Source of the DNA: Candidatus Brocadiia bacterium
GTDB lineage: Bacteria; Planctomycetota; MHYJ01; WSZJ01
Direction of reading: 5' to 3'
DNA length: 39,376 bases
NCBI GenBank assembly: GCA_013360825.1
Contig: JABWAY010000002.1
Coordinates: 1 to 39,376, forward strand
Shown: positions 15,003 through 31,565 of the stretch, piece by piece
How the letters are laid out: every line of letters begins with the position of its first letter
Numbering within the stretch: the stretch's first letter is position 1
The notes under the pieces: generated by a model
Told to the model about the DNA's origin: nothing
What the model saw: only the letters and a program-made list of their open reading frames with translations
Databases searched by the model: none
Made by a program: the position numbers and the translations under genes

Positions 15003-15057
15003 CGCGGGGACCCGATTTCCCCTCGCAGCCCCGCGGAGTTCCCCGTAGGCTGGCCCC

Positions 15058-16089: not shown

Positions 16090-16120
16090 CCGGGGCCGGA
16101 AGCAGCCGGGAGCCCGCCTC

Positions 16121-16624
16121 GTGCCCTGGCTGATCGCCGCCGCGGCGGCACTCCTCTGGGGACTCTGGACGCTGGCGCCCTGGTTCCGGCGCGGCGCCGC
16201 GACCGATCACAGGGAACGCCACGGGTCCTCCGTCGTCTCGATCCAGGAGATCACTCTCGGCAACGCCCCGCCGAATCTCGCCGAGCGCTACTTCCGCCGC
16301 CTGCCGCGCTTCGGCGGCTGGCTCCTGTGGCAGACGCGCTGGAAGGAGTCCGGGCCGTCGGTCGTCTTCTTCGGGATCCCGCTCATCCGGTTCGGCGCGC
16401 TGCGCCGCGACGCCGACCGGGAGACGCTGACGGTCGCGCGCGCCGCGTTCTCGCGCCACGGGGGAACGCTGTCCTTCGTCCGCGCCGGCGGACGGGTCCG
16501 GATCGAGCTCCGCGGTTTCCGTCCCAGGCTGTTCATGCCCCTCTACTGGCACCTTCAGCTTCCCGTTCACGCGGCGATGAGCCGCGCGTTCCTGTGCTGG
16601 CTCTCGAGGAGACCCGCGTCATGA
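16121..16624 (+). CDS. Hypothetical protein with N-terminal membrane anchor
   Basis: GTG-initiated track ORF of 167 aa with high GC3. Its stop overlaps the next ATG (ATGA at 16621-16624). I recognise no family. Confidence 0.5.
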   Translation: MPWLIAAAAALLWGLWTLAPWFRRGAATDHRERHGSSVVSIQEITLGNAPPNLAERYFRRLPRFGGWLLWQTRWKESGPSVVFFGIPLIRFGALRRDADRETLTVARAAFSRHGGTLSFVRAGGRVRIELRGFRPRLFMPLYWHLQLPVHAAMSRAFLCWLSRRPAS

Positions 16625-17031
16625 CGGACAGCACCGCGGAGTACGCCCGACTGGTCCCGTTTCTACCCGTGACGGATGTGGCGTCGGCGCTGAGTTTCTA
16701 CGAAGCGGTCTTCGGGCTGTCCCGGACGAATCTGAACACGCAGGACGGGAGGATCGTGCACGCCGAGCTGCGGGACGGGGAAAGGGTCGTGCTCATGCTG
16801 GCGCCCGAAGGAATCCATTCGCCGGCCAGCCGCGCCCCCGCCGCGGGCGGCGGCGTGTCCCCGACGGAGATCCAGATCCGGGTCGACGATGCCGGGCGGG
16901 CCTGGGATACGGCCCTCTCACACGGCGCCAGAGGAGAGCGACCGCCGCGTGACGTCCCCTGGGGGGAGCGGCATGCGCACATCATCGATCCCGACGGGCA
17001 CCGCTGGCTTCTCTCCCAGGTCCTGCGCTGA
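16621..17031 (+). CDS. VOC-family (glyoxalase/bleomycin-resistance/dioxygenase) protein
   Basis: ATG at 16621 is residue 99 of track ORF 16327..17031. LVPFLPVTDVASALSFYEAVFG...HAEL...WGERHAHIIDPDGHRWLL shows typical VOC blocks. Confidence 0.8.
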   Translation: MTDSTAEYARLVPFLPVTDVASALSFYEAVFGLSRTNLNTQDGRIVHAELRDGERVVLMLAPEGIHSPASRAPAAGGGVSPTEIQIRVDDAGRAWDTALSHGARGERPPRDVPWGERHAHIIDPDGHRWLLSQVLR

Positions 17032-17048
17032 CGCCCGCCGCCCCCGGA

Positions 17049-17717
17049 TCAGACCGCGGGCGGCCCTCCTTCGCCGTCGTCACCGCAGGCGCCGCACGCC
17101 ATTTCGTCCGAGCTCTCGATCCCGTCGAGTTCATCCTCCGTCAGCCTGCGGCCGCCGACGAGCGCCAGCAGCCGCTCGGCCAGGGTCGTCCACGCGTCCA
17201 CCGGACACGCCGCCAGACGGGTGGCCATCCCCCCCGCGACGACCGACAGGTGGTCCTCGAAGAACTTCTCCCGCGCGGCGCGGGTGATCCCCGCGGCGTC
17301 CCCATCCCCGCGCGCCAGCGCGTAGGCCTCCTTCAGCCACAGGTACGCCGCGAAACCCGTCTCCGAGGCGACATGATCCGGCGGCTCCCCGGACACAGGC
17401 CGGAACCCGAACGCTTCGTACAGGTGCCCCGCCTCCGCCATCGCCCGCGCGGGGTCGCGGCGGCCGATGTAGGCCGCCTCCCGCGGGGATGCCGGTCCCC
17501 CCGGCCCGAACAGCGAGTCGTAGTCGGGAGATTCGATCGCCAGCAGCGTCCCGGCGGTCTTCCGGAGTTCCGGGACGCCGCTCTCCGCGACCAGCGCCGC
17601 ACCGTGCCGGCTTCGCGACTCCGAGGGGCGCTCGAAAAGCAGGCCGATGAGGCGGAATTCGGCCGCCTGCTGCAGAGCCGCCCGCGTCGCGGCGTCCTCC
17701 AGGATGTCCGTGCTCAT
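17049..17717 (-). CDS. TorD/NarJ/DmsD-family redox-enzyme maturation chaperone (delta subunit of the molybdoenzyme)
   Basis: ATG at 17717 overlaps the stop of the gamma gene (ATGA). It is 222 aa, with the AAEFRLIGLLFERP...LFGPGG...PREAAY..LYEAFGF pattern of TorD-like chaperones. It is the last gene of the operon. Confidence 0.8.
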   Translation of the reverse strand: MSTDILEDAATRAALQQAAEFRLIGLLFERPSESRSRHGAALVAESGVPELRKTAGTLLAIESPDYDSLFGPGGPASPREAAYIGRRDPARAMAEAGHLYEAFGFRPVSGEPPDHVASETGFAAYLWLKEAYALARGDGDAAGITRAAREKFFEDHLSVVAGGMATRLAACPVDAWTTLAERLLALVGGRRLTEDELDGIESSDEMACGACGDDGEGGPPAV

Positions 17718-18598
17718 GGTTTTTTCGCTCCCGTCAGGGTGAGGGGAATCCAGACCGTCCGCATCTTCCGTCCCCCGACGTCCCCGTCGGAGCCGTTCCA
17801 GACGGCGAAGGCCACGAGCGACGTGCCCCCGGGCGCAAGGCCGGACGGAAGCGGCCTCGTGATGACGACCGCCCATCCGGCGCCGGTCCGGCGTCCCAGC
17901 CCGGTGGAACTCTGGGACGGAGCGGGCCTCATCGTCCCAGGGCCGTCCGCCATCAGGTCCTGCACCGACTTCTTCGGCGACGGACTGACGATGTTCCCCA
18001 GCGACTTCGCCGGAGCGTACTGCTTCGCCATCTCCTCGGCCTTGCCCGGCGTCTTCTCCAGCCCCGGAGCCTCGAAGGGATAGTGATCGATGTTCGCGTT
18101 CGGATGCAGCGACTTGAGATCATCCGGCCGCCCGTCGATGAACGCCTGCGCGGTCGCGGTCCAGAACGCGATCTCCACGGGGCGCCCCGGCTCGCCCATC
18201 TGCGGGGCAGGCGTGTCCGGGCCGGAATTCGACGGCAGCTGCACCGCGCAGGCATCGGTGAACCGTGCGGCGTCCCGGACCGAGTCCTCCGTCGCGTCCG
18301 CCCATTCCAGCCGGAAGGCGATGGACTTCCCGTCCGTCAGCGCTCTCACCGTGACCTCGGTCGCCCCCGCCACCATCTTGCGGGGCTCCACCATGTCCTG
18401 GAGGATCAGCGGAGCCCTGAAGGCCTCCCCTGAACCCCACTGCGCATCCTCCGGCGTCGACGGCAGAGCGGCGACCTGCACCGCGCGAACCTCCGTCACC
18501 GGCGCCGGCGGAACAGGCCTGCTGCACCCCCACAGCCCTGCCGCCAGCACACCCGCCGCCGCCATCCACGTCCGACGTCCCAGTCGTCCGTATGCCAT
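17714..18598 (-). CDS. Haem-b gamma subunit of a type II DMSO-reductase-family enzyme (EB_dh / EbdC-DdhC-NxrC-like domain)
   Basis: ATG at 18598 is preceded by GAGGTG; the earlier ATG at 18619 lacks an RBS. Signal MAYGRLGRRTWMAAAGVLAAGLWGC. VRALTDGKSIAFRLEWADATED...FTDACAVQLP...PQMGEPGRPVEIAFW matches the ethylbenzene-dehydrogenase gamma-type haem-binding domain. Confidence 0.8.
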   Translation of the reverse strand: MAYGRLGRRTWMAAAGVLAAGLWGCSRPVPPAPVTEVRAVQVAALPSTPEDAQWGSGEAFRAPLILQDMVEPRKMVAGATEVTVRALTDGKSIAFRLEWADATEDSVRDAARFTDACAVQLPSNSGPDTPAPQMGEPGRPVEIAFWTATAQAFIDGRPDDLKSLHPNANIDHYPFEAPGLEKTPGKAEEMAKQYAPAKSLGNIVSPSPKKSVQDLMADGPGTMRPAPSQSSTGLGRRTGAGWAVVITRPLPSGLAPGGTSLVAFAVWNGSDGDVGGRKMRTVWIPLTLTGAKKP

Positions 18599-18608
18599 GG
18601 CATCACCT

Positions 18609-19736
18609 CTAGGGAACATTGGTCAGGAGAACGCCCCGGGCCGCATCCACCGCCATCCGGATGTACTTCGGCTCCTGGATCGGGACCCGGATCAGCTCCG
18701 TCCCGTCCTCGTCCAGACCGAGCATCTCCCCGCCCACCCGCCGGAACCTTGGGATGATCTGCTCCGTCGATCCGAACAGCGCCAGCAGACCCATCAGGTC
18801 CGGATCGTTCGGCGCGTTCAGGTACGCCTTCGTCGCCTCCTCGACCCCGGGCCCGAAAATCTGCGTCAGGAACGCCGCCGGGGCATGCAGCGGCGGCACG
18901 TAGTACACGTTCGGCTCCAGTCCGAACTGCGGGAAGAGCGGCAGCGCGATCTTCTTGACGTGGATCAGGTAGTCGATCGGATTGTCCTCGCGCATCTGGT
19001 CGGGCTTCGAGATCGACCCCGCCATCCGGATCTTCCCGATGCAGTTCGAGAAACACTGCGGCGCCAGCCCCTGCTCCTGCTTCGGATAGCACCCGATGCA
19101 CTTCTCCGACGTCCCCGTCATCGGATTGAAGAACACCTTCTTGTACGGGCACGCCTTCACGCACTCCTGGTACCCGCGGCACTTCCCCTGGTCGACCAGC
19201 ACGATCCCGTCCTCCGGCCGCTTGTAGATCGACCCCCGCGGACACGCCGCCAGACATCCCGGGTACGTGCAGTGATTGCAGATCCGCGCGAGATAGAAGA
19301 ACCAGTTCATATGAGGAAGCGTCATGTGGGCGCCCTTGGTGATGTCGCCGGCGCAGTCGTCTTCCCCGACGTTCGGGTATGCGTAGTCCCTGGAATCCGG
19401 GCGCCAGCCCAGCACGCGCTCCCCGGCGGGGGCCGACTCGAAGATCGTCTTCCCCTGGTACGTCTTCCCCTTCCAGTCCTGCGCGCCCAGCATGTCCAGG
19501 AGCTTCACATCCCACCCGAGCGGGTAGAACCCGTACGGCTTGCTCTCGACGTTGTTCCAGAGCATCGACTCCTGCCCCTTGCCGCTGGTCCATGTCGTCT
19601 TGCACGCGAGAGTGCATGTCTGGCAGGCGATGCACTTGTTCACGTCGAAAATCGCTCCGAACTGCTTCTTCGCCCGGACTTCGGGATACCAGTACGACAT
19701 CTCCCGGCCGAGCTGCCAGTTGTAGACACGGGGCAT
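18609..19736 (-). CDS. Fe-S beta subunit (NarH/NxrB/EbdB-like, four-cluster ferredoxin) of the molybdoenzyme
   Basis: 375 aa. Cys clusters: [44 protein letters not shown]...C. The N-terminus [11 protein letters not shown]...[12 protein letters not shown] resembles NarH/NxrB. Confidence 0.9.
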
Positions 19737-22700
19737 CAGCGTTTCTCCTCACCGGAGCCGTCGGGTTTGCGGACGAAACCGCCCTTCAGGAAGGTCTTCA
19801 TGGCGGCATTCTCATAGCGGGGACGGAAGCCCAGGTCCGCGGGTCGCCAGAGGCCCTTGCCCTCCAGCCCGCCGGGCTCCGCCTTCGTGATCTTCACGAT
19901 CGCTTCCCGCGGCGCGCCGACCGGGCAGTGGACATCGGGCATGAAGCCCTTGCCGATCACCTGGCCGAAGATGTCCTTGCGGACGAGGGAGTCGGTCATG
20001 TGGGTGGGCTTGAGCCAGCCGCGCGTGGCGGACTGGTGCGAACCTGAACGGAACATGGCCTGGTAGTTGGTGCGGGGGTTGCGGGCGAGCCCGTCGGCCC
20101 GGCTGGCCTGGCCCTGGACGGACCCGGGGGTCGCGCCGTACATGTTGAACCACATCCGGGTGACGCCCCGGGGGGTCCCCGGGTAGTACCGCGCCCGGCA
20201 CATCAGCCGCGCGACCTTGTAGTTCTCCTTGTCCTTCTCCCAGCCGCGGAACGGGCGGTCCTCGGGGTCGGCATCGATCCAGACGTAGTCGCCGTCTTCG
20301 ACGCCGACCGACTTGGCGTCGTCCGGGTGGATGTCCACGTACCCTTCGGTCGTGAACGGCATCCGTTTGTCGGTCCGGTAGATGTCTCCGAACGGGCCGA
20401 ACAGCATGGCGTTGATGTCGGTGTCGATCGGCGTCGTGTGCGAACCGTGGCGGTACTTGGGGGTGTGGAAGATGAACCCGTACCCGTCCTTCGCGAGCGG
20501 ATGAACGGTCGCCTTCGTCTCCGCCCAGGTCTTCACCACGTTCCGGCCCTGCCGGACTTCGCACGACAGGTCCTTCGGGTCCAGGCCGTAACTCTCCGGT
20601 CCCTTCACGCGGATCGCCTCGTGCGGCGGGGCGACGATCACGTTCGGCTCGTAAAACGTCGAGTCGATCGGCTCACGGTGCACGGCGAGGTTCTCGCCCG
20701 CATCGATGAACTCGTTCTCCTCCCGGTAGAACTCCAGACGCCCGGTCTTCGTGTACCACGGACGGGAGTCCTCCACCTGCTCGTACCCCACCGCCTTCGG
20801 GTACGTCCGGTTCATCATCAGGGCCGGGATCCCCTCCTTCGCCTTCGCCTCGAGGTCGGCGATCCGGTACCCCTTGCCGCAGCTGCTGAAGTCCAGGATG
20901 CGCTGCAGGTAGGTGTGAACCTGCCCCTGGTCGATGAAGTGCCACATCTTCGCGAACCTGTCGTCTCCGGTGTGTTTCGCGAGCGCGTGGCCGACCAGAG
21001 AGAGGATTTCGTGGTCGCCGCGCGTCTCGAAGGTCCGCGGGAGCGGGGTTCTGGGAAAGACGCAGAGGAAGGAGTTGGTGACCGAGGCGGTCATGTCCGG
21101 GAACTTGTGTTCGTGCCAGGCGTCCGCGGCGAACACGATGTCCGCCCATTCGCACGACGCCGTCCACCACCACTCGTTGACCGCGATCATCTCCATGCGC
21201 GGCAGAACGTTGACCACGGTGTTGTAGTGCCACTTGACGTTCCCCAGGATCGAGTTCGCGTTCGCGAACCACATCGACTTCGTCGGGCAGGGCATGTGCG
21301 ACTGCCCCGTGATCATCGTCTTCCCCATCTTGAGCGGGTGATCCTCGTGGTTGTAGTAGTGCGCCGACTCCGCCCGCCAGTACTGCTTCGGGCGCGCGGG
21401 CTTCGCCGGGTCGAGTTCCAGGTCGAACGGGTTCTCGTTGATGTACTGCGGGGAGCCGTTGAACAGCGCGACCCGGTAGTTCCCCGCGTACGAGCCGATG
21501 TTCCCGCCGATGCGCCCCGTGTTTCCCGTGAGGGCCGCGAGCAGGAACAGCGAACGGTCCTTGTTGTCGCTGTTGAAGAACTGATTGGGACCCATGCCGA
21601 CCGCGAACAGCGTCGTTCCGGGCTGGGCCGCAAAGTGCTTCGCCAGCGACTCCACGGCGGGTGCGGGCGCCCAGGTGAGCTCCTCCGTGGTCTTCGGATC
21701 GAAGTGGGCGACATACTCCCAGGTCAGGTCCCAGACCGTGCGGCAGCGGACCTTCGTGCCGTCCTGGAGCGTGACTTCGACCGACCCGGAGAGCCTCGGA
21801 TCGCCGACGGGGGAGTGGGCGCCGACCTGGTCGCGGGAGATCGCCTTCGGCGTCCCCGAGACCGCGTCCCACCACACGTAGTCGCCCCACTCGTTCCGCA
21901 TGTCCTCGCTCACGTACATCGTCTTCTGCATCCCCGGAGGCGGCGCCTTCTCGCCCGCCTTCAGGACCGTGATCTGGTTGGTCAGCGTCGCCGGCGTGCC
22001 TCCGAACACCTCCGCGGCACGCAGCATCTTCAGCGTGTCCATCCGGACCAGGAGCGGCAGGTCGGTGAACTTCTTCACGTAGTCCGCGTCGTAGAGCTTG
22101 TCCCTCATGATCACGTGCGCAAACCCGGTCGCCAGCGCGCCGGTCGTCCCCGGCCGCACGACCAGCGCCTCGTCGGCCTTGCTCGACGTCGCGGAATACT
22201 CGCAGGCGATGACGACCACCTTCGTCCCGTTCGCGCGGGCCTCCGTCAGCCAGTGCGAGTCCGGCATCTTCGTCGTGATCCAGTTCATCCCCCAGATCAC
22301 CACGGTCTTCGAGTGCTCCACCGCGTTCAGGTCCCACTCGACCGTCTGCTGCCCCGTCACCATCGGATGCCCGGGAGGCAGGTCGGTGTGCCAGGAGTAG
22401 TTGTCGAACCCCCGCCCGCCCAGCGCGGCGTCCGGCCCGACCCCGCGGACCTTCGAGTCGAGCAGGGCCATCGAGTTCGCCATCCGGTACAGCCCGAAGA
22501 CCCGCGTGATCCCCAGCAGCGGCATCCCGCCGCGGAACTTCAGCGTCTGCGTCCCGGCTCCCTTCATCGCCGCGATCGTCTCCGGATAGTAGTGCTGCTT
22601 CTCCAGCAGCGCCGCCCCCTTCTCCCCCGAATACGTCGTCGCAATGTTGATCAGAACCCGCGCCGCAATGTCCGCCGCCTCCTCGTGCGTGACGCGAACC

Positions 22701-23200
22701 CAGTTGTCCCGCGCCCGGTTGAAGTACTCCTTCGGCGGCAGTCCGTCCTCACCGCGCGGGAAACCCAGGTCCACCCACTTCTTGTACCCCTCGCGCACCA
22801 TGCAGTGCCTCAGCCGCCGGTCGCCGTAGAACCGCCGCGTCAGCGCCAGACCCTTCTGGCAGATCCGCGGATCCCAGCGGTGTGAGGTGATCCGCTTTCC
22901 GTCGGCGTCCTCCGCAAGGCCGTACTTCATGCTCGGCCCGATCCGGGTGACGATCCCGTTCTTCACGAAGGCGCGGAGAATGCAGTTGTGCGTGTCGTTC
23001 GGCGCGCACGTAAACGTGAACGTGGAGTCGTACGCCCAGAGATCCCGGTAGGTCTTCTCCCAGTCCCGGTTCGGGTACTTCTCGAGCGGGTTGCCGACCG
23101 GCTCGTCCGCCCCCCAGCTCTCCGACGCCGACATGGCCAGCGCCCCGAAGCCGAGGGAACTGAGGTTCTGCATGAAGTTGCGGCGTGTGATCCGGTTCAT
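19736..23200 (-). CDS. Tat-exported molybdopterin (Mo-bisPGD) catalytic alpha subunit, type II DMSO-reductase family, NarG/NxrA-like
   Basis: 1154 aa. Twin-arginine signal [13 protein letters not shown]...AMSASES. FS0 region [10 protein letters not shown]..x40..C. WHTDLPP aligns with NarG WYCD(222)LPP, the Asp Mo ligand. The start overlaps the cytochrome c stop (ATGA), and the stop shares one base with the beta start (TGATG). Confidence 0.9.
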
Positions 23201-24885
23201 TTCTTCACCTCCCAGGTGCGCAGAAACGCGACGATCGCTTCAATCTCCCCGGCAGACAGGGCCTGCCGCGCGGGAGACCCGCTTGCGAACGACGGCATGG
23301 TCGTGCCGGACCTGCCGCGCCGGATGGACTCGAACAGGTAGGTGTCCGTCGCGGCCTTCAGGAACGCCGTGTTGTTCAGGGCGACGCCTTCCGCTCCCTC
23401 GCCGTCCTTCCCGTGGCAGGTCGCGCAGTGCGCCGCGAAGAGCTGTGCGCCGGCCCCCGGCTCGTCCTTCGCCCAGCGGGCAGGCTTCGTGTCCTTCTCC
23501 GGTCCGATCCCCCCGGCCGTGGACCGCAGATACGCCACGATCGCGTCGATCTCACGGGGCCGGAGCCCTCCTTCCTTTTCACCCCATGCCGGCATCCGCC
23601 GCCCCGGCCGGCCGTGGAGGATCGACTGCTTCAGGAAATCGTCGGTGGCGACGGCCAGGAAATCCCGGTTGCCGACGGCGGGGAAGGGCTGTGCTCCGGC
23701 GAAGCGCATTCCTTCGCCGGAGGTGCCGTGGCAGCTGGCGCAGAACGTGGCGTAGAGCGTCGAACCGTCCGTCGAGAACTCCCGTTCGCCGAGCCGCAGG
23801 GCCCGGGCGCGGTCAGGCGGCCAGAGAGCCTCGGGGGCGTCGGTCCGCCGGAGGGACAGGAGATAGGTCACCAGGGAGTCGACCTGGGCGTCCGTCAGTC
23901 CGAAGTCCGGCATCGCGGAGCCGGGGACGATCGTCGCAGGGGACTTGAGGTGCTGCGCGTGCCAGTTGGCGATCGTGTGCTCGCCCGTGACGCGGGAAAA
24001 GTTCGTCAGCGCCGGGTCGCGTTCGCCGGCGCGCGAGAGGTCGGGGCCGTCGTCGCCGCCGACACCGTTCACCTTGTGGCATCCGCGGCAGCCGAGCGAG
24101 TTGAAGAGCGACTTGCCGTGCGCGAGGGCGGGAACGCCGATGCGCGAGCTCAGATACCCCTCCATGACGGTCCGGTCCCGCTCGGGGATCTCCCCGAACG
24201 ACGCCTTCCACGGAAAGGCATCCGGCGGCTTCCCCGCCTCCGCAAGCCGGCGATTCCCCAGGTGTCCTTCGTACCAGTCGCCCGGAATGCCCTTCGCCCC
24301 GATCGCGGACAGGTCGGGTCCTTCGCCGCCTCCCGCACCGCCGGGCCGGAAGGTCCCTCCCTTGCCGTCGATTCTGTGGCAGGAGAGGCAGTCATAGCGG
24401 TCGACGAGGTCCCGGCCGCGGTCGAGCATGGCGAGGTTGGGGACGTGGACATGGGAGTGGCAGCTCCCGCACCCGGCCTGGACGTGTTTCAGCGGGATCA
24501 TCGGCTGGGGCCAGTGCGGGGCGGTCCCATGCGCGCCGGCCTTCGTCGTGGCGCGTCCCTGCCCGGCGTGACAGGTGGTGCAGCCGATCTCGGCCGGCTC
24601 GTGGTGGACCGGGGGGTGCTTCCCATAGATGCGGTCCCCCGCGATCCCCGTCTCCCCGGGAGCCATCCCGACGTGGCAGCTCACGCACCGGTCGGTCGCC
24701 TTCAGCGCCGGGACGACGATCTGCCGGAGCTGGATCTCGAACTCCGTCCCCGGGGGCAGGTGGGCCGCCACGTGGGCCTGCGCCTGGCGCCACTCGCTCA
24801 GGACGTGCTCGGAGTACGCCGCCCACAGGAGCACGAGCAGCGTTCCCGTGCTGGCCCACAACAGCAGGTGTTTGTTCCGGTTCAT
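23197..24885 (-). CDS. Membrane-anchored heptahaem cytochrome c
   Basis: 562 aa with an N-terminal TM helix ([18 protein letters not shown]). Seven CxxCH motifs: CVSCH, CTTCH, CGSCH, CLSCH, CRGCH, CASCH, CATCH. The last three sit in class-I-like domains with MPDF/MPAW/MPSF distal Met contexts. Confidence 0.85.
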
Positions 24886-24886
24886 G

Positions 24887-26449
24887 TTAGTGCCCCGGCC
24901 ACTGAGAGGGAGACCAGTAGAAGTCCCAGTTCGGACCGCGGAACCAGGTCCCGATCACGGTGAGGACGAGGAAGCCCATCAGAAAACAGGTGAAGAGCCC
25001 CAGGGCTCCTGCCCGCATCGAATTGAAGCGACGGACGATGTAGACCGAGTAGAGGCCGTAGATCAGCGTCAGCACCGTCCCGGGGTTGATCGCGGTGATC
25101 AGCAGCTGCGGTGTCCCCGGGAACCACTGGCGGAGCCATCCGAAACGGATGGCGATCGCCTCCAGGGCCAGGACCGTGCCCAGTCCGAAGACCGCCGACC
25201 AGGCGACGAGCTTCCCGCCCCCCGGCCCGCCGAACCACTCGCCGGTTCCCTTCTTCTCGCGGTCGAGGTAGGGGATCAGCCCGAGACCGACGATGATGAT
25301 TCCGGGGATCAGGACTCCCCCCGCGAACGCGGAGTGGGCGACCAGTTCCTGGAGGCCGAGGAAGTACCACGGAGCCTTGGCGGGGTTCTCCGGGACGTTC
25401 GGGTTGGCGAGTTCCTTCAGCGGCGCGTCGGAGACGATGCTGAGCAGAACGCAGACAAGAAACGTCAGCATGAACACCGCCGCCTCCGCGTAGAACAGGT
25501 GCGGCATCGACGGCACCGTGTTCTCAGCCCCGGCACCGACCGCGGGTGTGCGGCCGCGGACGACGGCCGCCAGGGACCAGGTCTTTCTCGGCGCCGCCGT
25601 CCACGCCGGCACCGCCTCCGGGTCCGGGCCGCCGAGTCTCCGGTCCGCGTCCTCCGGTTTCGCCAGGCCGCCGTCCTTCCGGATGCGCCAGAAGTGAATG
25701 CCGAGCAGCCCGCAGAGCGCGATCGGGAGAATCATGACGTGCAGCAGGTAGAACCGGATCAGCGCTTCGGCCCCGACCTCATCGGACCCGAGAAGGAGGA
25801 GTTTCTGGAGTCCGCCCGGGTCGAAGTGAGGCGTCAGGCCGATCGGATCTGTGACCTCGCGCGGGGACTGGGCGATGTTGGCGCCGATGGTGATGGCCCA
25901 GTAGGCGAGCTGGTCCCAGGGAAGGAGATACCCGGTGAAGCTGAGACCGAGCGTGACGACGAGGAGGAACATCCCGGTCGCCCAGTTGAACTCCCTGGGT
26001 TTCCGGTACGACGCGGTGTAGAAGACCCGCGCCATGTGAATCAGCACCGAGAAGACCATGACGTTGGCGGACCAGCGGTGAATGTTGCGCAGGAACCGGC
26101 CGGTCGGGACGACGAAGTGGATGTCCTTGATCGACTGGTAGGCCGCCTCCGGGTAGGGCTTGTAATAGAACATGAGGAGGATGCCGGTCACGGTGGCGAT
26201 GAGGAAGGAGCTCAGGGCAACCATCCCGAGGCCCCAGGTCGTGGACCAGCGCAGGCTCCAGCGGTGCGTGCGCACGCTCTGGACATGGAGGAAAAAGTTC
26301 GAGAAAACGAAGTCGTTGCGGCTCCGGTCGCTGTCCGGCCTGCCGGTCCGGAACATCGACTCGATGAACCTCCGCGGCACTTTTCGCAGGTTGTCCGCAA
26401 AGGTCCCGAGACCTGTGCGTTCCTCCTGCCCGTGGCCGGGGGTGTTCAT
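24887..26449 (-). CDS. Cytochrome b of a Rieske/cytochrome b complex (fused b6 + subunit IV-like, 520 aa)
   Basis: Haem-ligand pairs are H-x13-H (HRWSANVMVFSVLIH) and H-x14-H (HVMILPIALCGLLGIH). GYLLPWDQLAYW is a block typical of cytochrome b. The subunit IV-like part contains APWYFLGLQE. ATG 26449 overlaps the Rieske stop (ATGA). Confidence 0.9.
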   Translation of the reverse strand: MNTPGHGQEERTGLGTFADNLRKVPRRFIESMFRTGRPDSDRSRNDFVFSNFFLHVQSVRTHRWSLRWSTTWGLGMVALSSFLIATVTGILLMFYYKPYPEAAYQSIKDIHFVVPTGRFLRNIHRWSANVMVFSVLIHMARVFYTASYRKPREFNWATGMFLLVVTLGLSFTGYLLPWDQLAYWAITIGANIAQSPREVTDPIGLTPHFDPGGLQKLLLLGSDEVGAEALIRFYLLHVMILPIALCGLLGIHFWRIRKDGGLAKPEDADRRLGGPDPEAVPAWTAAPRKTWSLAAVVRGRTPAVGAGAENTVPSMPHLFYAEAAVFMLTFLVCVLLSIVSDAPLKELANPNVPENPAKAPWYFLGLQELVAHSAFAGGVLIPGIIIVGLGLIPYLDREKKGTGEWFGGPGGGKLVAWSAVFGLGTVLALEAIAIRFGWLRQWFPGTPQLLITAINPGTVLTLIYGLYSVYIVRRFNSMRAGALGLFTCFLMGFLVLTVIGTWFRGPNWDFYWSPSQWPGH

Positions 26450-26943
26450 ACGGTCTCCTTCGTGCCGGGCGGCACGACCGTCCCCTCATCGATCAGAATC
26501 GCCCCTCCGCCGGCGGACCGGACGGACAGCCACGGGAGCCCCTTCGGCGCGGGCCCGCGGAGCACGGTCCCGTCCGGCGCGAACTGCGACCCGTGGCAGG
26601 GGCAGTCGAAGCCCATGGCCGCGGGTTTCACGATGCAGCCGAGGTGCGTGCAGACGGTGGACATGGCGAAGACCCTGTCGCCGTCCTTGAACACCACGAC
26701 CGACCGGCCCTCCGGGAAGAAGGGTGTTCCGGACGGGAGGCTCTCCGGAAGCGTTACCTTGAATTTCTTCGCCGCCGACGGCAGCACGGCGGCCTTCGGC
26801 AGCTTTGCCGCGCCCAGCGCGGCGAAACCGCAGGCGCCCGCGGCCATCGAGGCCGCGGCAATGCCGAGGAAGTCCCGGCGCGGCATGGCCTCGGGATCCA
26901 GGCGGGAAGGCTTCCCGGGGGACGGCTCCGAATGCGTGCTCAT
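26446..26943 (-). CDS. Rieske [2Fe-2S] protein with twin-arginine signal
   Basis: 165 aa, the C-terminal part of track ORF 26446..28200. It has RRDFLGIAAA, CTHLGC and CPCHGS. ATG 26943 overlaps the stop of the upstream gene (ATGA). Confidence 0.9.
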   Translation of the reverse strand: MSTHSEPSPGKPSRLDPEAMPRRDFLGIAAASMAAGACGFAALGAAKLPKAAVLPSAAKKFKVTLPESLPSGTPFFPEGRSVVVFKDGDRVFAMSTVCTHLGCIVKPAAMGFDCPCHGSQFAPDGTVLRGPAPKGLPWLSVRSAGGGAILIDEGTVVPPGTKETV

Positions 26944-28865
26944 GCGATCCTCCAGTCCACGGTGAACTGCACCCGATCCATCGCGATCGCCTCCACCGGG
27001 CACCTCCGGGCACAGAGAGCGCACCGGATGCACCGGTCCTCGTCCTTCAGAATGGCGGAGTTCCCTTCTGCGTCCGCCCCGCCGCCGAGGGCGTCCTCGA
27101 CCGCCGCCTCGAGCCACTCCGACGGACCCATCGCCGACAGCGGCACCAGCTTCAGGCAGAGTGTCGGGCAGACGTCCGCGCATCCGCCGCAGAGCACGCA
27201 GCGGGATCCGTCGAAGACCGGCGTCACGCCGCAGTCGAGGCATCGCGACGCTTCCCGGCGCGCCTGCTCCTCCGTGTATCCCTTCTCCACCGGCACGTCC
27301 ACGCCGCCCATCCGTTCGTGCGGGTCCGCCGTCGGGATCTCCACCCGCCGGATCGACTCGTACCCGTGCTCGCGGGTGTACCGTTCCTGCGTCACGAAGT
27401 CCGTCCGGACCTCGACCTCGAGGCGGCGGCCGGTCAGGTGCGAGTAGATGGAGCGCGCGGCCTTTTTCCCGGAGGCGACGGCGTCGATGAGGAGCCGCGG
27501 GCCGTGCGCCAGGTCGCCCGCCACGAAAACGCCGGCGGCGGTCGACTGCAGCGTCTCGCGATCGACCGTCGGCCACCCCGGGCGCGCCTGCTGGACATCC
27601 GTCCCGCCGTCCTGGAGGAACGACAGGTCCGCGGCCTGACCTGTCGCGAGCAGCACGGTGTCGCAGGCGACCGTCTGCCGGCGCGCCTCGTCGTACACGG
27701 GCGCGAACTTCCGGTCCGCGTCGAAGACCCGAAGACACTTCCGGAAGGTCACTCCCGTGATTCTCCCGTCCGCCCCGCGGAGAATTTCCACGGGGCCCCA
27801 CCCGTTCAGCCGCTCGACCCCTTCCTCGTCTCCCTCCCGGATCTCGACCGTGTCCGCGGGCATTTCCTCCAGCGTTTCGAGGGATGCGAGGCGGACTTTC
27901 CGGGTTCCCGGCAGCCGGATCGCCGTGCGCGCCGCGTCGGTCGCCAGGTTGCGCAGCACGGTCCGCGCGACGTCGTAGGCGACGTTGCCGCCGCCGATGA
28001 CGAGCACATCGGAGCCGATCGCCAGCGGTTCCCCGACGGAGACGGCCCGCAGGAAGTCCACCCCCCCGAACACGCCGGGGCCGGCCTCGCCAGGCAGACC
28101 GAGCCCCCGCGAACGTTTCGCCCCCACGCACAGCAGGATCGCCCGGTGGCGCCGGCGGAGTTCGGCGAAACTGACGTCCTTTCCGACCGTCACCCCGCAC
28201 CGGATCTCGACGCCCAGCGCCTGGATCACGGCGATTTCCCGCTGGATCAGCGCGCGCGGCAGGCGGTAGGCGGGGATCCCGACGGCCAGCATCCCCCCGG
28301 GCACCTTCTCGATGTCGTACACGACGGGCTTGAACCCCATCAGCGCCAGGTCATGGGCCGCGGACAGCCCCGCCGGACCTCCTCCGATGATGCCGACCGA
28401 GTCCCCGTTTACCTTCGGGATCCGTCCGGCAAAGGCCCGAAGCGTCGCCGCCATCTCCTCCGCATCCGAGCAGGTCTCCGGCGTATGGGCCTGAAGCGCC
28501 TTCCACACGTCTCCGGGATCGCGCACATCCGGGCCGGCCTGCTCGCAGGCGAACCGTTTCAGCGCCCGGATCGAGACCGGGCGGTCGAGCGCCACGAATC
28601 TGCCGTCGGCGTCCGTGCGCGGGATCTTCCCGCGGCGGCAGGCGGTCTCACAGGGGGCCCCGCAGACCCGGCCGCAGATGGAGGCGAACGGATTCGGGCC
28701 GCGGGCGATCAGGTAGGCCTCCTCGAACCTGCCGGCGGCGACCGCCCGGACGTAGCCGCGGGCGTCCGTGTGGACCGGGCAGGCCGCCTGGCAGGCGACC
28801 AGTTCCCGATGGTGGGACTCACCCGGGACGGAGACGTTGAGCCGCGGGGAGGCGGTGTCGTTCAT
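26940..28865 (-). CDS. GltD-like (glutamate synthase small-subunit family) FAD/NAD(P)H oxidoreductase with N-terminal Fe-S sites and a C-terminal 2x[4Fe-4S] ferredoxin domain; cytoplasmic
   Basis: ATG 28865 is residue 86 of track ORF 26940..29120 and lies 5 nt after GGAG. 641 aa with no signal peptide. Motifs: CQAACPVH..CGRVCGAPCETAC, GIIGGGPAGLSAAHDL, VLVIGGGNVAYDVA, CLDCG..CVLCGGCADVCP..CIRCALCARRCP. Confidence 0.85.
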   Translation of the reverse strand: MNDTASPRLNVSVPGESHHRELVACQAACPVHTDARGYVRAVAAGRFEEAYLIARGPNPFASICGRVCGAPCETACRRGKIPRTDADGRFVALDRPVSIRALKRFACEQAGPDVRDPGDVWKALQAHTPETCSDAEEMAATLRAFAGRIPKVNGDSVGIIGGGPAGLSAAHDLALMGFKPVVYDIEKVPGGMLAVGIPAYRLPRALIQREIAVIQALGVEIRCGVTVGKDVSFAELRRRHRAILLCVGAKRSRGLGLPGEAGPGVFGGVDFLRAVSVGEPLAIGSDVLVIGGGNVAYDVARTVLRNLATDAARTAIRLPGTRKVRLASLETLEEMPADTVEIREGDEEGVERLNGWGPVEILRGADGRITGVTFRKCLRVFDADRKFAPVYDEARRQTVACDTVLLATGQAADLSFLQDGGTDVQQARPGWPTVDRETLQSTAAGVFVAGDLAHGPRLLIDAVASGKKAARSIYSHLTGRRLEVEVRTDFVTQERYTREHGYESIRRVEIPTADPHERMGGVDVPVEKGYTEEQARREASRCLDCGVTPVFDGSRCVLCGGCADVCPTLCLKLVPLSAMGPSEWLEAAVEDALGGGADAEGNSAILKDEDRCIRCALCARRCPVEAIAMDRVQFTVDWRIA

Positions 28866-29108
28866 GCCCGCTCCGCCGCCGCGCCTGCTGCCCTGCGGGG
28901 CGAATCGCCTGCGGAACCGGGGGGCCGGAAGGGGGACGCGGGAAGTGCGCAGGGCACCGGTGCTGTCGGGTGCGGGGTCATGGTGGGTCTCTCTTCTCAG
29001 CTCGGTGTGGGTGACCGGTCTGCTGGGGCAGGGGATCAGATTGCGAAAAGCGGGCCTCGGAAAAGAAGCGTGGCGCACGCGGATTGGGGGCGCTGGGGCC
29101 TGGGCACT

Positions 29109-29134
29109 GCGTGAAATCACGCTTCCGTGCGTGA
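29109..29134. promoter_or_regulatory. Three TCACGC/GCGTGA half-sites (candidate operator or alternative hairpins) in the leader of the respiratory operon
   Basis: The plus strand reads GCGTGA-aa-TCACGC-ttccgt-GCGTGA (29109-29114, 29117-29122, 29129-29134). It lies in a locally AT-richer patch about 245-270 nt upstream of ATG 28865. The sequence observation is certain; any function is unknown. Confidence 0.3.
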
Positions 29135-29278
29135 ATTGCCGCTATTGTCAGCGAACTCCCGCGCCGCACCCGCCGCCCCGCGCGGAACCGAGCCGGAGGC
29201 CACCCAGCCGGTGCGCAGAATCCTGCGAATTGGCGGCGACGTCCCTACTCCGGTGTCCCTTCCGCTGAAAACAACTCA

Positions 29279-29339
29279 CCCCACCCCGCAACCCCACCCA
29301 ACACCCGGATCCGCCCCTCCACCCGCCTCCCCCGCCCCC
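29279..29339 (-). repeat. Strand-asymmetric G-run tract (nine runs of 3-5 G on the coding strand) immediately 3' of the REC-PilZ stop codon
   Basis: The plus strand shows C-runs at 29279-82, 29284-87, 29292-95, 29297-99, 29304-06, 29314-17, 29322-24, 29329-33 and 29335-39. The minus-strand transcript would read GGGGGCGGGGGAGGCGGGTGGAGGGGCGGATCCGGGTGTTGGGTGGGGTTGCGGGGTGGGG. Confidence 0.6.
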
Positions 29340-30100
29340 TACAGCCCGGGCTTCATCACATTCGTCCCGCGCTCCATCAGCCGGCGCGTGAACGCCTTCA
29401 ACCGCTCCTTCTCCGCCTGCGCCAACTCCACGAAATTCAGCCCGACATCAAATCGCTTCAGGTCCACCAGAGGCTCGACCCGGATCGCCTGCATCTTCGC
29501 CTTGAGCGGCGCCTCACCGGGAAGGTCGAGCTCGATGTTCAGCACCGCCCCCTTCGCAAGCTTCTCCTCCGTCTGGATCGAAATCCCCGTCTCGCTCAGA
29601 TCCGTCGTCATCGCCTCGCGCTTCTTCGTGAAGAAGCCGTCGTTCACGTTCTTGTAGCTCATCAGCAGCGCCTTCTTCAGCTTCACCCCCATCTGCCCCG
29701 CGCCGCCCACCCCGTCCTGCCCCGTGGCCAGCTTCGTGAACGCTTCCAGGACCTTGTCCCGCTGAAGCGGCTTCCGCACGCGGACCCCGTTGGAGAGGGA
29801 GATCGCGCCCATCACGAGATGCACCGTCTCCCCGGAGTGCAGGATGAGGACCTTGAGCTTCGGATACTTGTCGGCGATCTTCTTGACCAGGCTGTTGCCG
29901 CCGTCGCCGGGCTTGTTGGCGTGCCCGGGAAGGAGCAGATCGATCGCGATCGCCCAGGGCTTGAGCAGGTCGATCGCTTCGAACAGCGCGTCCCCATCCG
30001 TGGCCTCCCCGACGACCTCGTAGGGCGTCCCCGACAGCAGTCCGGAGAAGGCTTTGCGGACTTCGGCACTCTTGTCGGCGACGATGATGGTCGTTCGCAT
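29339..30100 (-). CDS. Response regulator: receiver (REC) domain fused to a PilZ domain
   Basis: ATG 30100 is residue 61 of track ORF 29339..30280. The REC part has IIVADKS, AIAIDLLLPG, VLILHSG and VRKP. The PilZ part has TTDLSETGISI (DxSxxG) and a C-terminal beta-barrel pattern. The usual RxxxR is replaced by KLKK. Confidence 0.8.
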   Translation of the reverse strand: MRTTIIVADKSAEVRKAFSGLLSGTPYEVVGEATDGDALFEAIDLLKPWAIAIDLLLPGHANKPGDGGNSLVKKIADKYPKLKVLILHSGETVHLVMGAISLSNGVRVRKPLQRDKVLEAFTKLATGQDGVGGAGQMGVKLKKALLMSYKNVNDGFFTKKREAMTTDLSETGISIQTEEKLAKGAVLNIELDLPGEAPLKAKMQAIRVEPLVDLKRFDVGLNFVELAQAEKERLKAFTRRLMERGTNVMKPGL

Positions 30101-30278
30101 GGAATCCCCCGAGAAATCGGTTCGTCCGGATTCAGGCCTCGGATGGATGATGCGGTCTCGGGAGGGGCTGAAGGAAGCACAAAACGCGGCAATCTGCGAT
30201 CTGTGAGAACGGGAGGAGAGCCGGCCGGCCGGCTCCGGCCCCCCCCGGCGGCACGGCCGGCCGTACAATGCCCCGCCC

Positions 30279-31565
30279 ATGCCCTCCCTTCCGTTCTACT
30301 CGCGCTACACGCGCGGGCTCCACCTGCGCGCCGAGCTGCTGAACAACGTCTTCACCGCCGTCGTCGGCCTCGCCATCACCATCGCCCGCAAGACGCTCGG
30401 CGCCTCCGACGACTGGATCACGATCCTCACCACCGCCGGCCCCGCCGCGAACCTGACCGCCATCTTCTGGGCGAACGCCATGGAGGGACGGGCCAAGCGG
30501 CCGTTCATCCTGGGCGCCGCCGTCCTCGGCCGGCTCTCCCTCGCCTTCATGGCCTTCGCCGTGGAGCCCCCGCTCTTTGTCCTTCTCTGCTGCCTCTACT
30601 TCCTCTCGGAGCCCGCCTTCATCCCCGCCCAGAATGCGCTCCTCCAGGCCAACTACCTGCCGTCGATCCGGGGAAGGGTCTTCGGGGGGATCACGGGCGT
30701 GGCGCGGATCGCGTACCTGGTGACGGCGCTGGCGGCGGGATGGGTTCTGGACCATGACGGCGACGCCTACCGGTGGATGTTGCCGGTGGCCGGGGTGATC
30801 GGAACCGCCGCGTATTTCCAGTACGCCCGGATCCGGGTCCGGCGATGGGATGCGCCGGAGACGGTGAAGGAGCGCGGCGTGGTCGACGCGCTCCGGGGGT
30901 TCCTGAGAATCCTGCGGGAGGACCGGGAGTTCGACCGGTTCGAGCGGAACTTCATGCTCTACGGGATCGCGTTCATGATGGTGATGCCGATTCACATCTA
31001 CCTGCTGATCGACGTGCTGGAGATGTCGTACACGCAGGTGACCTGGTGCTCGATGATCCTGCTGCAGGTGGTGATCGTGATCGGGAGCCGGACTGCTGGG
31101 CGGCTCCTGGACCGCCTCGGGCCGTGCCGGCTGGCGGCGATCGCATTCGCCGCGCTGGTCGGCTACCTCGGACTGCTCGCCTGCGCGGCGGTCACGCGCA
31201 GCGTGCCGCTGGCGTTCGCGGGATTCGGGATGTTCGGGATCGGCATGGCGGGGGTGAACTCCGCCTGGTCGCTCGGCGCGATGCGCTTCGCCGGCGACCG
31301 GGATGCTTCGGGCTACATGGGCGCCCACGTCGCCTGCGTCGGCGTCCGCGGGTTGTTCGGTCCGGCCATCGGAAACGCGATCTTCCTCGCGGTGGAAGGA
31401 CCCTGGCTCGGCCTCCCGGGGTACGGAATGATGACGGTGTATGTCGTCGCGGCGATCCTGATGGCCGCGGCGGCGATCGAGATGTTCCGGCAGGGGAGAA
31501 GGACGGAGGGGACGCCCGCCGCGGGATCCGCGGCGCAGGAGCCTGCCGCGCTGGCCCGGGGGTGA
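30279..31565 (+). CDS. MFS-type transporter
   Basis: 428 aa with about 12 hydrophobic segments and an overall MFS-like architecture. Substrate is unknown. Confidence 0.75.
   Translation: MPSLPFYSRYTRGLHLRAELLNNVFTAVVGLAITIARKTLGASDDWITILTTAGPAANLTAIFWANAMEGRAKRPFILGAAVLGRLSLAFMAFAVEPPLFVLLCCLYFLSEPAFIPAQNALLQANYLPSIRGRVFGGITGVARIAYLVTALAAGWVLDHDGDAYRWMLPVAGVIGTAAYFQYARIRVRRWDAPETVKERGVVDALRGFLRILREDREFDRFERNFMLYGIAFMMVMPIHIYLLIDVLEMSYTQVTWCSMILLQVVIVIGSRTAGRLLDRLGPCRLAAIAFAALVGYLGLLACAAVTRSVPLAFAGFGMFGIGMAGVNSAWSLGAMRFAGDRDASGYMGAHVACVGVRGLFGPAIGNAIFLAVEGPWLGLPGYGMMTVYVVAAILMAAAAIEMFRQGRRTEGTPAAGSAAQEPAALARG

Follow-up and report, generated by a model that had tools for sequence, protein, structure and literature searches.

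What does a cytoplasmic flavoprotein do at the head of a gene cluster that encodes a Rieske protein, a cytochrome b, a multihaem cytochrome c and an enzyme of the nitrite oxidoreductase (NXR) type? The question is raised by a GltD/NfnA-like flavo-iron-sulfur protein (hereafter the flavoprotein) encoded in a 39,376-nucleotide stretch of a Candidatus Brocadiia bacterium of the Planctomycetota (assembly GCA_013360825.1, contig JABWAY010000002.1, positions 1 to 39,376), to which we refer as the window. A note made earlier from the sequence alone (the original prediction) had suggested that the protein docks on the cytoplasmic face of cytochrome b. From sequence comparisons and the analogy with anammox bacteria, we consider it quite probable that the flavoprotein is a subunit on the cytoplasmic (n-) side of the Rieske/cytochrome b (R/b) complex, joining the b haems to FAD and NAD(H) via four Fe-S clusters. 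The association of such flavoproteins with R/b complexes is already known in anammox bacteria; new, as far as our literature searches show, is its occurrence in a non-anammox cassette, together with NXR and with a nucleotide site that appears to be of the NADH type.

The linkage of the genes was followed across genomes from two sides. A scan with the flavoprotein, taking one genome per species, gave 398 relatives, and the best 80, which are 65-81% identical to the window protein, were examined. Their genomes are labelled as Planctomycetota, Acidobacteriota, Myxococcota/'Deltaproteobacteria', Binatia, Verrucomicrobiota, Eisenbacteria and other groups. The Rieske gene lies directly downstream of the flavoprotein gene in all 80 loci, and wherever the contig continues, it is followed in the same order by the genes of cytochrome b, cytochrome c and NxrA. 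With the cytochrome c as query we obtained more than 551 species-level relatives; 70 of the best 80 had enough upstream sequence to judge, and in each of these the flavoprotein gene precedes the Rieske gene, and NxrABC and a chaperone stand behind. This second set adds Methylomirabilis, Zixibacteria, Limnocylindria, Desulfarculaceae, Anaeromyxobacter and Thermoguttaceae to the hosts. Combined, the synteny holds in 150 of 150 assessable loci from at least ten phyla. None of 17 control relatives with 26-37% identity (from Bacteroides, Firestonebacteria, Oscillospiraceae, Syntrophus and others) had Rieske or cytochrome b genes within 3 kb, and 15 of them lack the ferredoxin domain, the match ending at about residue 545 or earlier; a relative with 47% identity (L154) is linked to Rieske/cytochrome b. 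Because the linkage is complete in both sets and absent from the shorter controls, we regard the flavoprotein as an obligatory part of the cassette. The original prediction had proposed to look for such co-occurrence, and had named a complete lack of linkage as the outcome that would speak against it; what was found is the opposite. The overlap of the flavoprotein TGA with the Rieske ATG, which it also reported, is present in the window, and the same four-base ATGA is kept in 49 of 79 related loci, the two genes overlapping or abutting in 76 of the 79.

A close parallel is found in anammox bacteria. The best solved relatives of the window Rieske protein are two Rieske proteins of Kuenenia R/b complexes, 9rk4 and 9rk3. 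The sequence of 9rk4, used as query, gave 66 loci, which with few exceptions carry the labels of anammox bacteria or of metagenome-assembled genomes (MAGs) of Planctomycetota; 48 of these were tabulated. Their gene order is Rieske, flavoprotein, cytochrome b6, subunit IV, bar seven loci without a flavoprotein match: two at contig ends, one in which about 270 nucleotides separate the Rieske and cytochrome b genes, and four distant loci of deltaproteobacterial/Thermodesulfobacteriota origin. The anammox flavoprotein aligns to residues 20-640 of the window protein with 33-37% identity and has kept all 16 of its invariant cysteines, thus the subunit that the original prediction called analogous turned out to be a full-length homologue. 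No NXR gene was found within the fetched 10-kb flanks of the anammox R/b clusters, which argues that the tie of the flavoprotein is to R/b and not to NXR. The anammox R/b subunits co-migrate in complexome profiling, and in the AlphaFold3 model the NAD(P) oxidoreductase lies on the cytoplasmic side, with a path leading from haem through four Fe-S clusters to FAD; the model further predicts a new haem b, located between the cytochrome b monomers, with Kuste4571 His43 as ligand and with Kuste4571 Arg247 and Kuste4570 Arg511 close to its propionates (PMC12954380).

These residues could be traced in the window family, since the numbering of a Kuenenia locus recovers His43, Arg247 and Arg511. Kuste4571 His43 and Arg247 correspond to His55 and Arg257 of the window cytochrome b, and both are invariant in 72 of 72 family sequences. 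His55 is part of an H-x-H motif (His55-x-His57), whose second His is present in 70 of the 72 family sequences and in 48 of 48 anammox sequences; Gln takes its place in the window sequence and in L001, the closest relative of the window. The position of Kuste4570 Arg511 is occupied in the window family by an invariant Gly, inside the first ferredoxin motif, and the residue preceding the first Cys of that motif is an invariant Arg in the window family and Glu or Asp in anammox bacteria. As judged from the alignment, a charge has moved within the same motif between the two families. Because Arg511 falls inside it, motif 1 (C556-P567) would, by homology with the Kuenenia model, hold the membrane-proximal cluster. 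In the window cytochrome b, conservation of the cytoplasmic segments is similar to that of the helices (21 of 51 residues are invariant in the segment 25-75 and 26 of 66 in the linker 255-320), and together with the kept contact residues this pattern fits a docking surface for the flavoprotein.

Compared with Kuste4570 (R/b-3) and Kustd1483 (R/b-2), the window flavoprotein has the same domain order, the same 16 cysteines and likewise Rieske and cytochrome b neighbours; the partner Rieske proteins are the closest solved relatives of one another, and the partner cytochromes b have in common the APWY Qo motif and the equivalents of His43 and Arg247. There are also clear differences. The flavoprotein gene precedes the Rieske gene in the window, whereas in anammox bacteria it stands between the Rieske and cytochrome b6 genes; the protein has insertions at about residues 80-92 and 110-150 and two extra invariant cysteines, C107 and C570; its cytochrome b partner is a fused protein of 520 amino acids and not split into b6 and subunit IV; and the high-potential partner encoded in the operon is NXR, in contrast to the HAO-like octahaem protein of the Kuenenia R/b-3 cluster. 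The hosts of the window cassette are non-anammox bacteria.

The flavoprotein gene is read from the minus strand, with ATG at 28865-28863 and TGA at 26942-26940 (641 codons). A longer reading frame starting from GTG at 29120 is possible, but the N-termini of homologues lie about eight residues ahead of a conserved L-x-V-x-V-P-G-E, and because these positions agree with the ATG at 28865, we take this as the start. In the translation neither a hydrophobic stretch nor a twin-arginine motif could be seen at the N-terminus, in agreement with the original prediction of a protein lacking a signal peptide, whereas the neighbouring Rieske protein (RRDFL) and NxrA (RRNFMQ) have twin-arginine N-termini. 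On this basis the flavoprotein is predicted to be cytoplasmic and its neighbours to be exported or membrane-bound.

The domains were also found where the original prediction had placed them, both in the sequence and by Pfam: GltD-type N-terminal cysteines, FAD and NAD(P)H folds, and two C-terminal ferredoxin motifs. Fer4_20 (PF14691) matches residues 24-110 (E=2e-17; 63 bits vs a cut-off of 25.8), with profile positions 31-108 covered. The cysteine motifs here are C25-QAA-C29-P-V-H and C64-GRV-C68-GAP-C72-ETA-C76; the first two cysteines of the canonical Fer4_20/GltD-type motif are absent, and are presumably replaced by C542 and C545. Pyr_redox_2, a double Rossmann FAD/NAD(P) unit, covers residues 157-466 (E=1e-16) and includes the FAD motif G158-IIGGGPAGLSAAHDL and the NAD motif V287-LVIGGGNVAYDVA. 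Two Fer4 motifs follow at about 549-568 and 605-627 (C556-VL-C-GG-C-ADV-C-P and C612-IR-C-AL-C-ARR-C-P), parted by a variable insert of about 35 amino acids. Sixteen cysteines are invariant in the 80 family loci and 49 anammox homologues: C25, C29, C64, C68, C72 and C76 in the N-terminal domain, C542 and C545 after the flavin domains, and C556, C559, C562, C566, C612, C615, C618 and C622 in the ferredoxin domain. The first eight would be enough for two clusters, and all 16 for four [4Fe-4S] clusters, the number in the published anammox model. Two further cysteines, C107 and C570, are found in every member of the window family, but all anammox homologues have Thr and Ala, respectively, at these positions; because the two residues change together, they may share a role, for example as an extra ligand or in a contact between the N-terminal and ferredoxin domains.

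In the sequence search the best solved relatives of the flavoprotein were NfnA (9bov/9n5u) and StnC (8oh5), followed by NfnB, GltD and DPD. An AlphaFold2 monomer model, built on a 29-sequence alignment and used for fold search only, gave the same ranking in Foldseek, with probability 1.00 to NfnA, NfnB, GltD and DPD. The match to NfnA/StnC (9bov, 9bp5, 9n5u, 8oh5) is strong (E=2e-80 to 5e-68; query-normalised TM-score 0.63), and the CxxxCP and CxxxCxxxC N-terminal cysteines and the CxxC after the flavin domains are common to both. However, it involves the GltD-like module only: the NfnA/StnC subunits of Bfu-type NfnABC/StnABC are proteins of 950-1180 amino acids with extra Fe-S and molybdopterin-like domains, they carry Tyr-Arg-Arg in the nucleotide site, and work with HydB/C-like partners in a soluble complex, whereas the window protein of 641 amino acids has neither these domains nor such partners, and is encoded beside Rieske and cytochrome b. 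NfnB, GltD and the N-terminal (PreT-like) half of DPD have the Fer4_20, FAD and NAD(P) Rossmann domains in common with the flavoprotein, and DPD, in which four clusters wire the flavin to the partner, also has the C-terminal 2x[4Fe-4S] ferredoxin domain. Automatic pipelines name the protein 'glutamate synthase beta subunit-like' or 'formate dehydrogenase beta subunit'. These names cannot be taken as functional assignments, because the curated NCBIfam equivalog models score far under their cut-offs (TIGR01316, gltA, 209 vs 472; TIGR01317, GOGAT_sm_gam, 157 vs 448). No GltB, NfnA-partner, PreA or Fdh gene was found near the flavoprotein gene in the window and the related loci. Because of the sub-threshold scores and the missing partner genes, we rejected the identification of the protein as a glutamate synthase, a formate dehydrogenase beta subunit, YgfK or AegA.

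A precedent exists for the placement of an NAD(P)-linked flavoprotein against the n-side of a b6-type complex: ferredoxin:NADP+ reductase (FNR) on cytochrome b6f is such a protein (cited in PMC5600118), although FNR has an unrelated fold, lacks an Fe-S wire and is not encoded with its complex. Cytochromes b of subfamily G co-occur with oxidoreductases of the present kind, and the long cytochromes b of clade G' were found in 'large conserved operons ... of an unknown function' (PMC5600118), which may be identical with the window cassette. In our literature searches we found no paper on the eight-gene cassette outside anammox bacteria, on its invariance, on the pairing of NXR with the flavoprotein or on the NADH-type site.

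The nucleotide site of the window family differs from that of most of its relatives. After strand beta-2 of the NAD domain the window protein and 80 of 80 relatives have Ser-Leu-Glu (L329 and E330 being invariant), where NfnA, StnC and 43 of 49 anammox homologues have Tyr-Arg-Arg; six Scalindua-type anammox proteins have the Leu-Glu form, as in the window family. Tyr-Arg-Arg forms a site for the 2'-phosphate of NADPH, and according to the standard rule for Rossmann folds an acidic residue ending beta-2 favours NAD(H). By this rule the site of the window family is most likely of the NADH rather than the NADPH type.

The order of the cassette is GltD-like flavoprotein, Rieske, fused cytochrome b, heptahaem cytochrome c, NxrA, NxrB, NxrC and a NarJ-like chaperone (Table 1). 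The seven genes downstream of the flavoprotein gene are on the same strand and all overlap or nearly abut, and called genes on long contigs of related loci show that the cassette ends with the chaperone gene. NxrA matches subunit A of the Kuenenia nitrite oxidoreductase (7b04_B) over its full length (E=7e-253), on the basis of which we regard the molybdoenzyme as a periplasmic one of NXR type. The window cytochrome b has the four haem b histidines (124, 138, 237 and 252) and the Qo motif APWY (359-362), which is common to the window family and anammox bacteria, but it lacks the CxGG cysteine of haem c_n: in 72 of 72 family cytochromes b this position is Gly73, in b6-type proteins it is Cys. 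His62 and His317, at the cytoplasmic ends of helices A and E, are invariant in the 72 family sequences and absent in anammox homologues; they lie near the place of haem c_n in b6f, and could be additional haem ligands or part of a rebuilt Qn site. The Rieske proteins of both families have the box II serine as hydrogen-bond donor. The window family is of the S-F type in 73 of 79 loci, like Kustd1480, and the anammox loci fetched are of the S-Y type, like Kuste4569 (PMC12954380, PMC4122944). The cytochrome c consists of an N-terminal membrane anchor, four closely spaced CxxCH motifs and three class-I cytochrome c domains. As listed, the NarJ-like open reading frame (ORF) overlaps the NxrC gene by about 160 nucleotides; since an internal Met (MSTDILE) near 17717 gives the usual short overlap, the true start is probably there. 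Past the cassette there are two long minus-strand ORFs without Pfam match (12982-15939, 985 amino acids; 15830-16570, 246 amino acids).

Table 1. Features of the flavoprotein gene, the cassette and its upstream gap (window coordinates)
Feature	Position	Strand	Basis and remarks
GltD/NfnA-like flavo-iron-sulfur protein gene	26940..28865	-	ORF, translation, Pfam; 641 aa, predicted cytoplasmic
ATGA stop/start overlap, flavoprotein TGA with Rieske ATG	26940..26943	-	sequence
N-terminal Fe-S domain (C25, C29, C64, C68, C72, C76)	28638..28793	-	six Cys invariant; aligns to NfnA Fe-S domain
FAD-binding GxGxxG fold, G158-L173	28347..28394	-	within Pyr_redox_2 and NAD_binding_8; pLDDT ~87-89
NAD(H)-binding Rossmann fold, V287-A300, with Leu329-Glu330 ending strand beta-2	27876..28007	-	L329/E330 invariant 80/80
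C542-LD-C545 motif after flavin domains	27231..27242	-	invariant in window and anammox families; CxxC also in NfnA, StnC
C-terminal 2x[4Fe-4S] ferredoxin domain, motifs C556-P567 and C612-P623	26997..27200	-	Pfam Fer4, Fer4_10, Fer4_7; 8 Cys invariant
Rieske [2Fe-2S] protein, twin-arginine (Tat)-type N-terminus, box II CPCHGSQF (S-F type)	26446..26943	-	Pfam Rieske
Fused cytochrome b (b6-like + subunit IV-like), 520 aa, ~8 transmembrane helices	24887..26449	-	Pfam, NCBIfam, alignments
Membrane-anchored heptahaem cytochrome c, 7 CxxCH	23197..24885	-	Pfam; motif count; N-terminal hydrophobic helix
NxrA-type molybdopterin subunit, 1154 aa, Tat signal RRNFMQ	19736..23200	-	full-length match 7b04_B
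NxrB-type Fe-S subunit	18609..19736	-	Pfam Fer4_11; TIGR03478 DMSO reductase type II beta subunit
NxrC-type haem b subunit (EB_dh family)	17714..18619	-	Pfam EB_dh; TIGR03477
NarJ/TorD-like chaperone	17049..17876	-	Pfam Nitrate_red_del; last conserved cassette gene in other phyla
Non-coding gap ahead of cassette, 473 nt	28866..29338	-	between flavoprotein and response-regulator/PilZ genes

The flavoprotein gene was called the first gene by the original prediction. This holds for the structural genes of the cassette in the window, where the nearest gene upstream encodes a response-regulator/PilZ protein, but in about 40 of the 80 related loci, including the closest relatives of the window, an Rrf2-family regulator gene (NsrR/IscR-like, with three Cys) lies directly upstream on the same strand (e.g. 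L001:6507-7004 and L147:9522-10004). In some other related loci the upstream gene encodes a hemerythrin. A search of the upstream gap of the window for homologues of the Rrf2 genes of L001-L003 and L147 gave none. A promoter scan upstream of the cassette gave no sigma-70-like promoter, and terminator-like matches were at chance level. Identical DNA is present in activated-sludge, bioreactor and groundwater metagenomes, and metatranscriptome contigs from bioreactor and activated-sludge runs (X16, X25, X26 and X29) contain the window region 15500-31000 at low and even depth. A few short-anchored 'joints' (about 20 nucleotides) in the metatranscriptome contigs resemble assembly artefacts.

In which direction would electrons flow through such a complex? 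We tentatively prefer, at somewhat less than even chances, a bifurcation of menaquinol, in which NXR reduces nitrate and the flavoprotein reduces NAD+. Menaquinol would be oxidised at the APWY Qo site. The first electron would pass from a high-potential S-F Rieske centre to the heptahaem cytochrome c and on through NxrC and NxrB to NxrA, reducing nitrate in the periplasm, and the energy of this step would drive the second electron, by way of b haems of very low potential and then the Fe-S chain, to FAD, where NAD+ would be reduced. On the n-side the first ferredoxin-type cluster would face the cytoplasmic surface of the cytochrome b dimer, where His55 and Arg257 may hold an extra haem b, and the electrons would pass between haem b_N and FAD/NAD(H), in either direction, through the four Fe-S clusters. 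The preference for bifurcation to NADH comes from an estimate with standard potentials: with menaquinol at about -75 mV, nitrate/nitrite at +430 mV and NAD+ at -320 mV, the splitting of menaquinol between nitrate and NAD+ would be exergonic overall. The scheme would be the same as the quinone-based bifurcation of anammox bacteria, but with nitrate as the high-potential acceptor and NADH instead of NADPH. For anammox complexes bifurcation to NAD(P)+ was proposed by Kartal and co-workers and is unproven there too; the Rieske centres of these complexes have potentials of +303 and +335 mV, the latter being that of Kustd1480, which would allow very low-potential b haems (PMC12954380).

Several observations point to nitrate reduction as the physiological reaction of the cassette: the upstream Rrf2 (NsrR-like) and hemerythrin genes, the Nar operon of Thermogutta terrifontis, the clade of its NarG, and the haloarchaeal Nar. 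T. terrifontis is a cultured planctomycete that reduces nitrate, and its sole respiratory nitrate reductase is encoded with Rieske, cytochrome b, cytochrome c, NarG, NarH, gamma and chaperone genes (THTE_1506-1512; PMC5673643), a core gene order which, as read from the genes, is that of the window cassette. Its NarG falls within the Kuenenia/Nitrospira NXR clade (PMC10732223). The periplasmic Nar of haloarchaea (NarB/NarC-NarGH) is also encoded with Rieske/cytochrome b and is antimycin-sensitive (PMC4683180). Both systems combine Rieske/cytochrome b with a Tat-exported nitrate enzyme of the type II DMSO-reductase family, as in the window, but an NAD-linked flavoprotein, present in the window cassette, is undescribed for either.

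It must be noted that a number of points weigh against bifurcation and against the details of the proposed n-side path. The AlphaFold2 model of the flavoprotein has a mean pLDDT of 66 and is below 50 in every Fe-S region, and because of this weakness we could only infer which cysteines belong to which cluster. Since the family cytochromes b lack the haem c_n cysteine, the n-side electron path must differ from that of the anammox model. Complexes with the APWY Qo motif have been associated with operation in reverse (PMC4122944). The hosts of the cassette are mostly presumed heterotrophs, with no obvious need for quinol-driven NADH, and a Leu-Glu site of the NADH type is just as suitable for a catabolic donor. 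Finally, the RNA evidence is indecisive on the bounds of the transcript or operon, because coverage is flat over genes and spacers, and carry-over of DNA is possible.

The two points on NADH lead to the alternative which survives best, although we consider it less likely than bifurcation, namely that NADH is the donor: electrons would enter at FAD, travel along the four Fe-S clusters to the haem(s) on the n-side and reduce menaquinone at Qn, and the quinol would be reoxidised at Qo in an ordinary Q cycle that feeds nitrate reduction in the periplasm, making the cassette a self-contained respiratory chain. The replacement of Tyr-Arg-Arg by Leu329-Glu330, an acidic discriminator of NAD over NADP, throughout the family would suit this role, as would the mostly planctomycetal, acidobacterial and myxococcal hosts, for which NADH is presumably the main catabolic donor, and a rebuilt Qn site could be made up of invariant n-side residues, among them His62 and His317 by helices A and E. 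In T. terrifontis the complex is the sole annotated complex III, and it is thought to serve aerobically too, which requires a quinol:cytochrome c function (PMC5673643). However, a simple NDH-2 would do an equal job, compared with which a wire of four clusters seems costly, and flow from NAD(P)H to quinone through such a complex has been argued to waste much energy (PMC12954380); moreover, a presumed high-potential S-F Rieske centre combined with menaquinol implies very low-potential b haems, which are better suited to reducing NAD+ (PMC12954380).

Less well does the evidence agree with the oxidative direction, in which the hosts would be unrecognised nitrite oxidisers, with electrons entering from NXR to cytochrome c and Rieske, and with the complex running in reverse, either for an uphill reduction of NAD+ or for a confurcation with NADH. 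NxrA is closest to the bidirectional Kuenenia NXR, the original prediction had mentioned reverse electron transport, and the APWY Qo motif was proposed to mark complexes fed from the high-potential side (PMC4122944), but nitrate reduction by the single cultured organism that shares the core gene order (PMC5673643) and the NsrR-like regulators upstream, which fit nitrate/nitrite respiration, argue otherwise. In addition, electrons of nitrite (+430 mV) cannot reach NAD+ via the flavoprotein without a large input of proton-motive force, and by a thermodynamic estimate confurcation with NADH has no evident benefit. We thus consider this direction very unlikely. The same low probability applies to a flavoprotein which is docked but does not use NAD(P)(H), either because its nucleotide site is dead or because its ferredoxin domain exchanges electrons with ferredoxin, named as a possible acceptor in the original prediction, or with another cytoplasmic carrier. 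The loss of the canonical Tyr-Arg-Arg and a 12-residue insertion in the NAD domain could be understood in this way, but the GGGNVAYD and EEMPA motifs of this domain are invariant and the domain is modelled with high confidence, and the ferredoxin domain would not be free for a soluble partner if it faces the membrane as in the anammox model (PMC12954380). That the flavoprotein is a soluble stand-alone enzyme encoded by chance beside Rieske (a GltD, part of an Nfn-like transhydrogenase, a formate dehydrogenase beta subunit or an NXR maturation factor), as the automatic names and the lack of a membrane segment might suggest, is hardly credible and largely refuted by the synteny with its overlapping stop and start codons, the more so as the GltD, YgfK and AegA models score far under their cut-offs, no GltB, NfnA-partner or Fdh genes are nearby, and the anammox homologues lie in R/b clusters with no NXR in the 10-kb flanks.

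The cassette proteins (window 17049-28865) are 65-85% identical between genomes labelled as different phyla (L001-L080 and L172-L250), and a Thermoguttaceae flavoprotein has its best matches (about 80% identity) in Methylomirabilota. Such identity across phyla suggests that the cassette has been transferred horizontally more than once, each time as a whole, and is under strong purifying selection. A cultured host was sought with a Paludibaculum-type query, but the scan gave only MAGs and outgroups, and T. terrifontis was not among the matches listed in a protein search with a Thermoguttaceae query. Returning to the preferred bifurcation, it is possible, though we hold this view loosely, that the cassette as a whole encodes a single bifurcating respiratory supercomplex, which horizontal transfer has carried into more than 500 species-level genomes from no fewer than ten phyla and which represents the general, non-anammox form of such a system. 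The original prediction is extended here on three points: NXR genes downstream identify the high-potential partner, the nucleotide site appears to be of the NADH type, and cytochrome b no longer has the cysteine that binds haem c_n.

Ever since the anammox proposal, bioenergetics has faced the question of whether the low-potential electron of a Rieske/cytochrome b complex can be delivered to NAD(P)+ rather than returned to the quinone pool, and anammox bacteria are slow-growing and genetically intractable. The present work shows that a homologous flavoprotein is obligatory in a far wider cassette, found in Planctomycetota, Acidobacteriota, Myxococcota, Binatia, Methylomirabilota and other bacteria of sludge, soil and groundwater, and that the cassette itself names an NXR-type nitrate/nitrite enzyme as the high-potential partner. 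The bifurcation and NADH-donor models make opposite and easily measured predictions from the same architecture. If NADH proves to be the donor, the cassette would be a compact NADH:nitrate chain, which would likewise be new. If bifurcation is true, the hypothesis would become testable in tractable, ordinary heterotrophic hosts, possibly in T. terrifontis, metagenomic 'nxr' counts taken as markers of nitrite oxidation would need re-reading, and the energy yield and NADH balance of nitrate respiration would have to be revised for common environmental bacteria.

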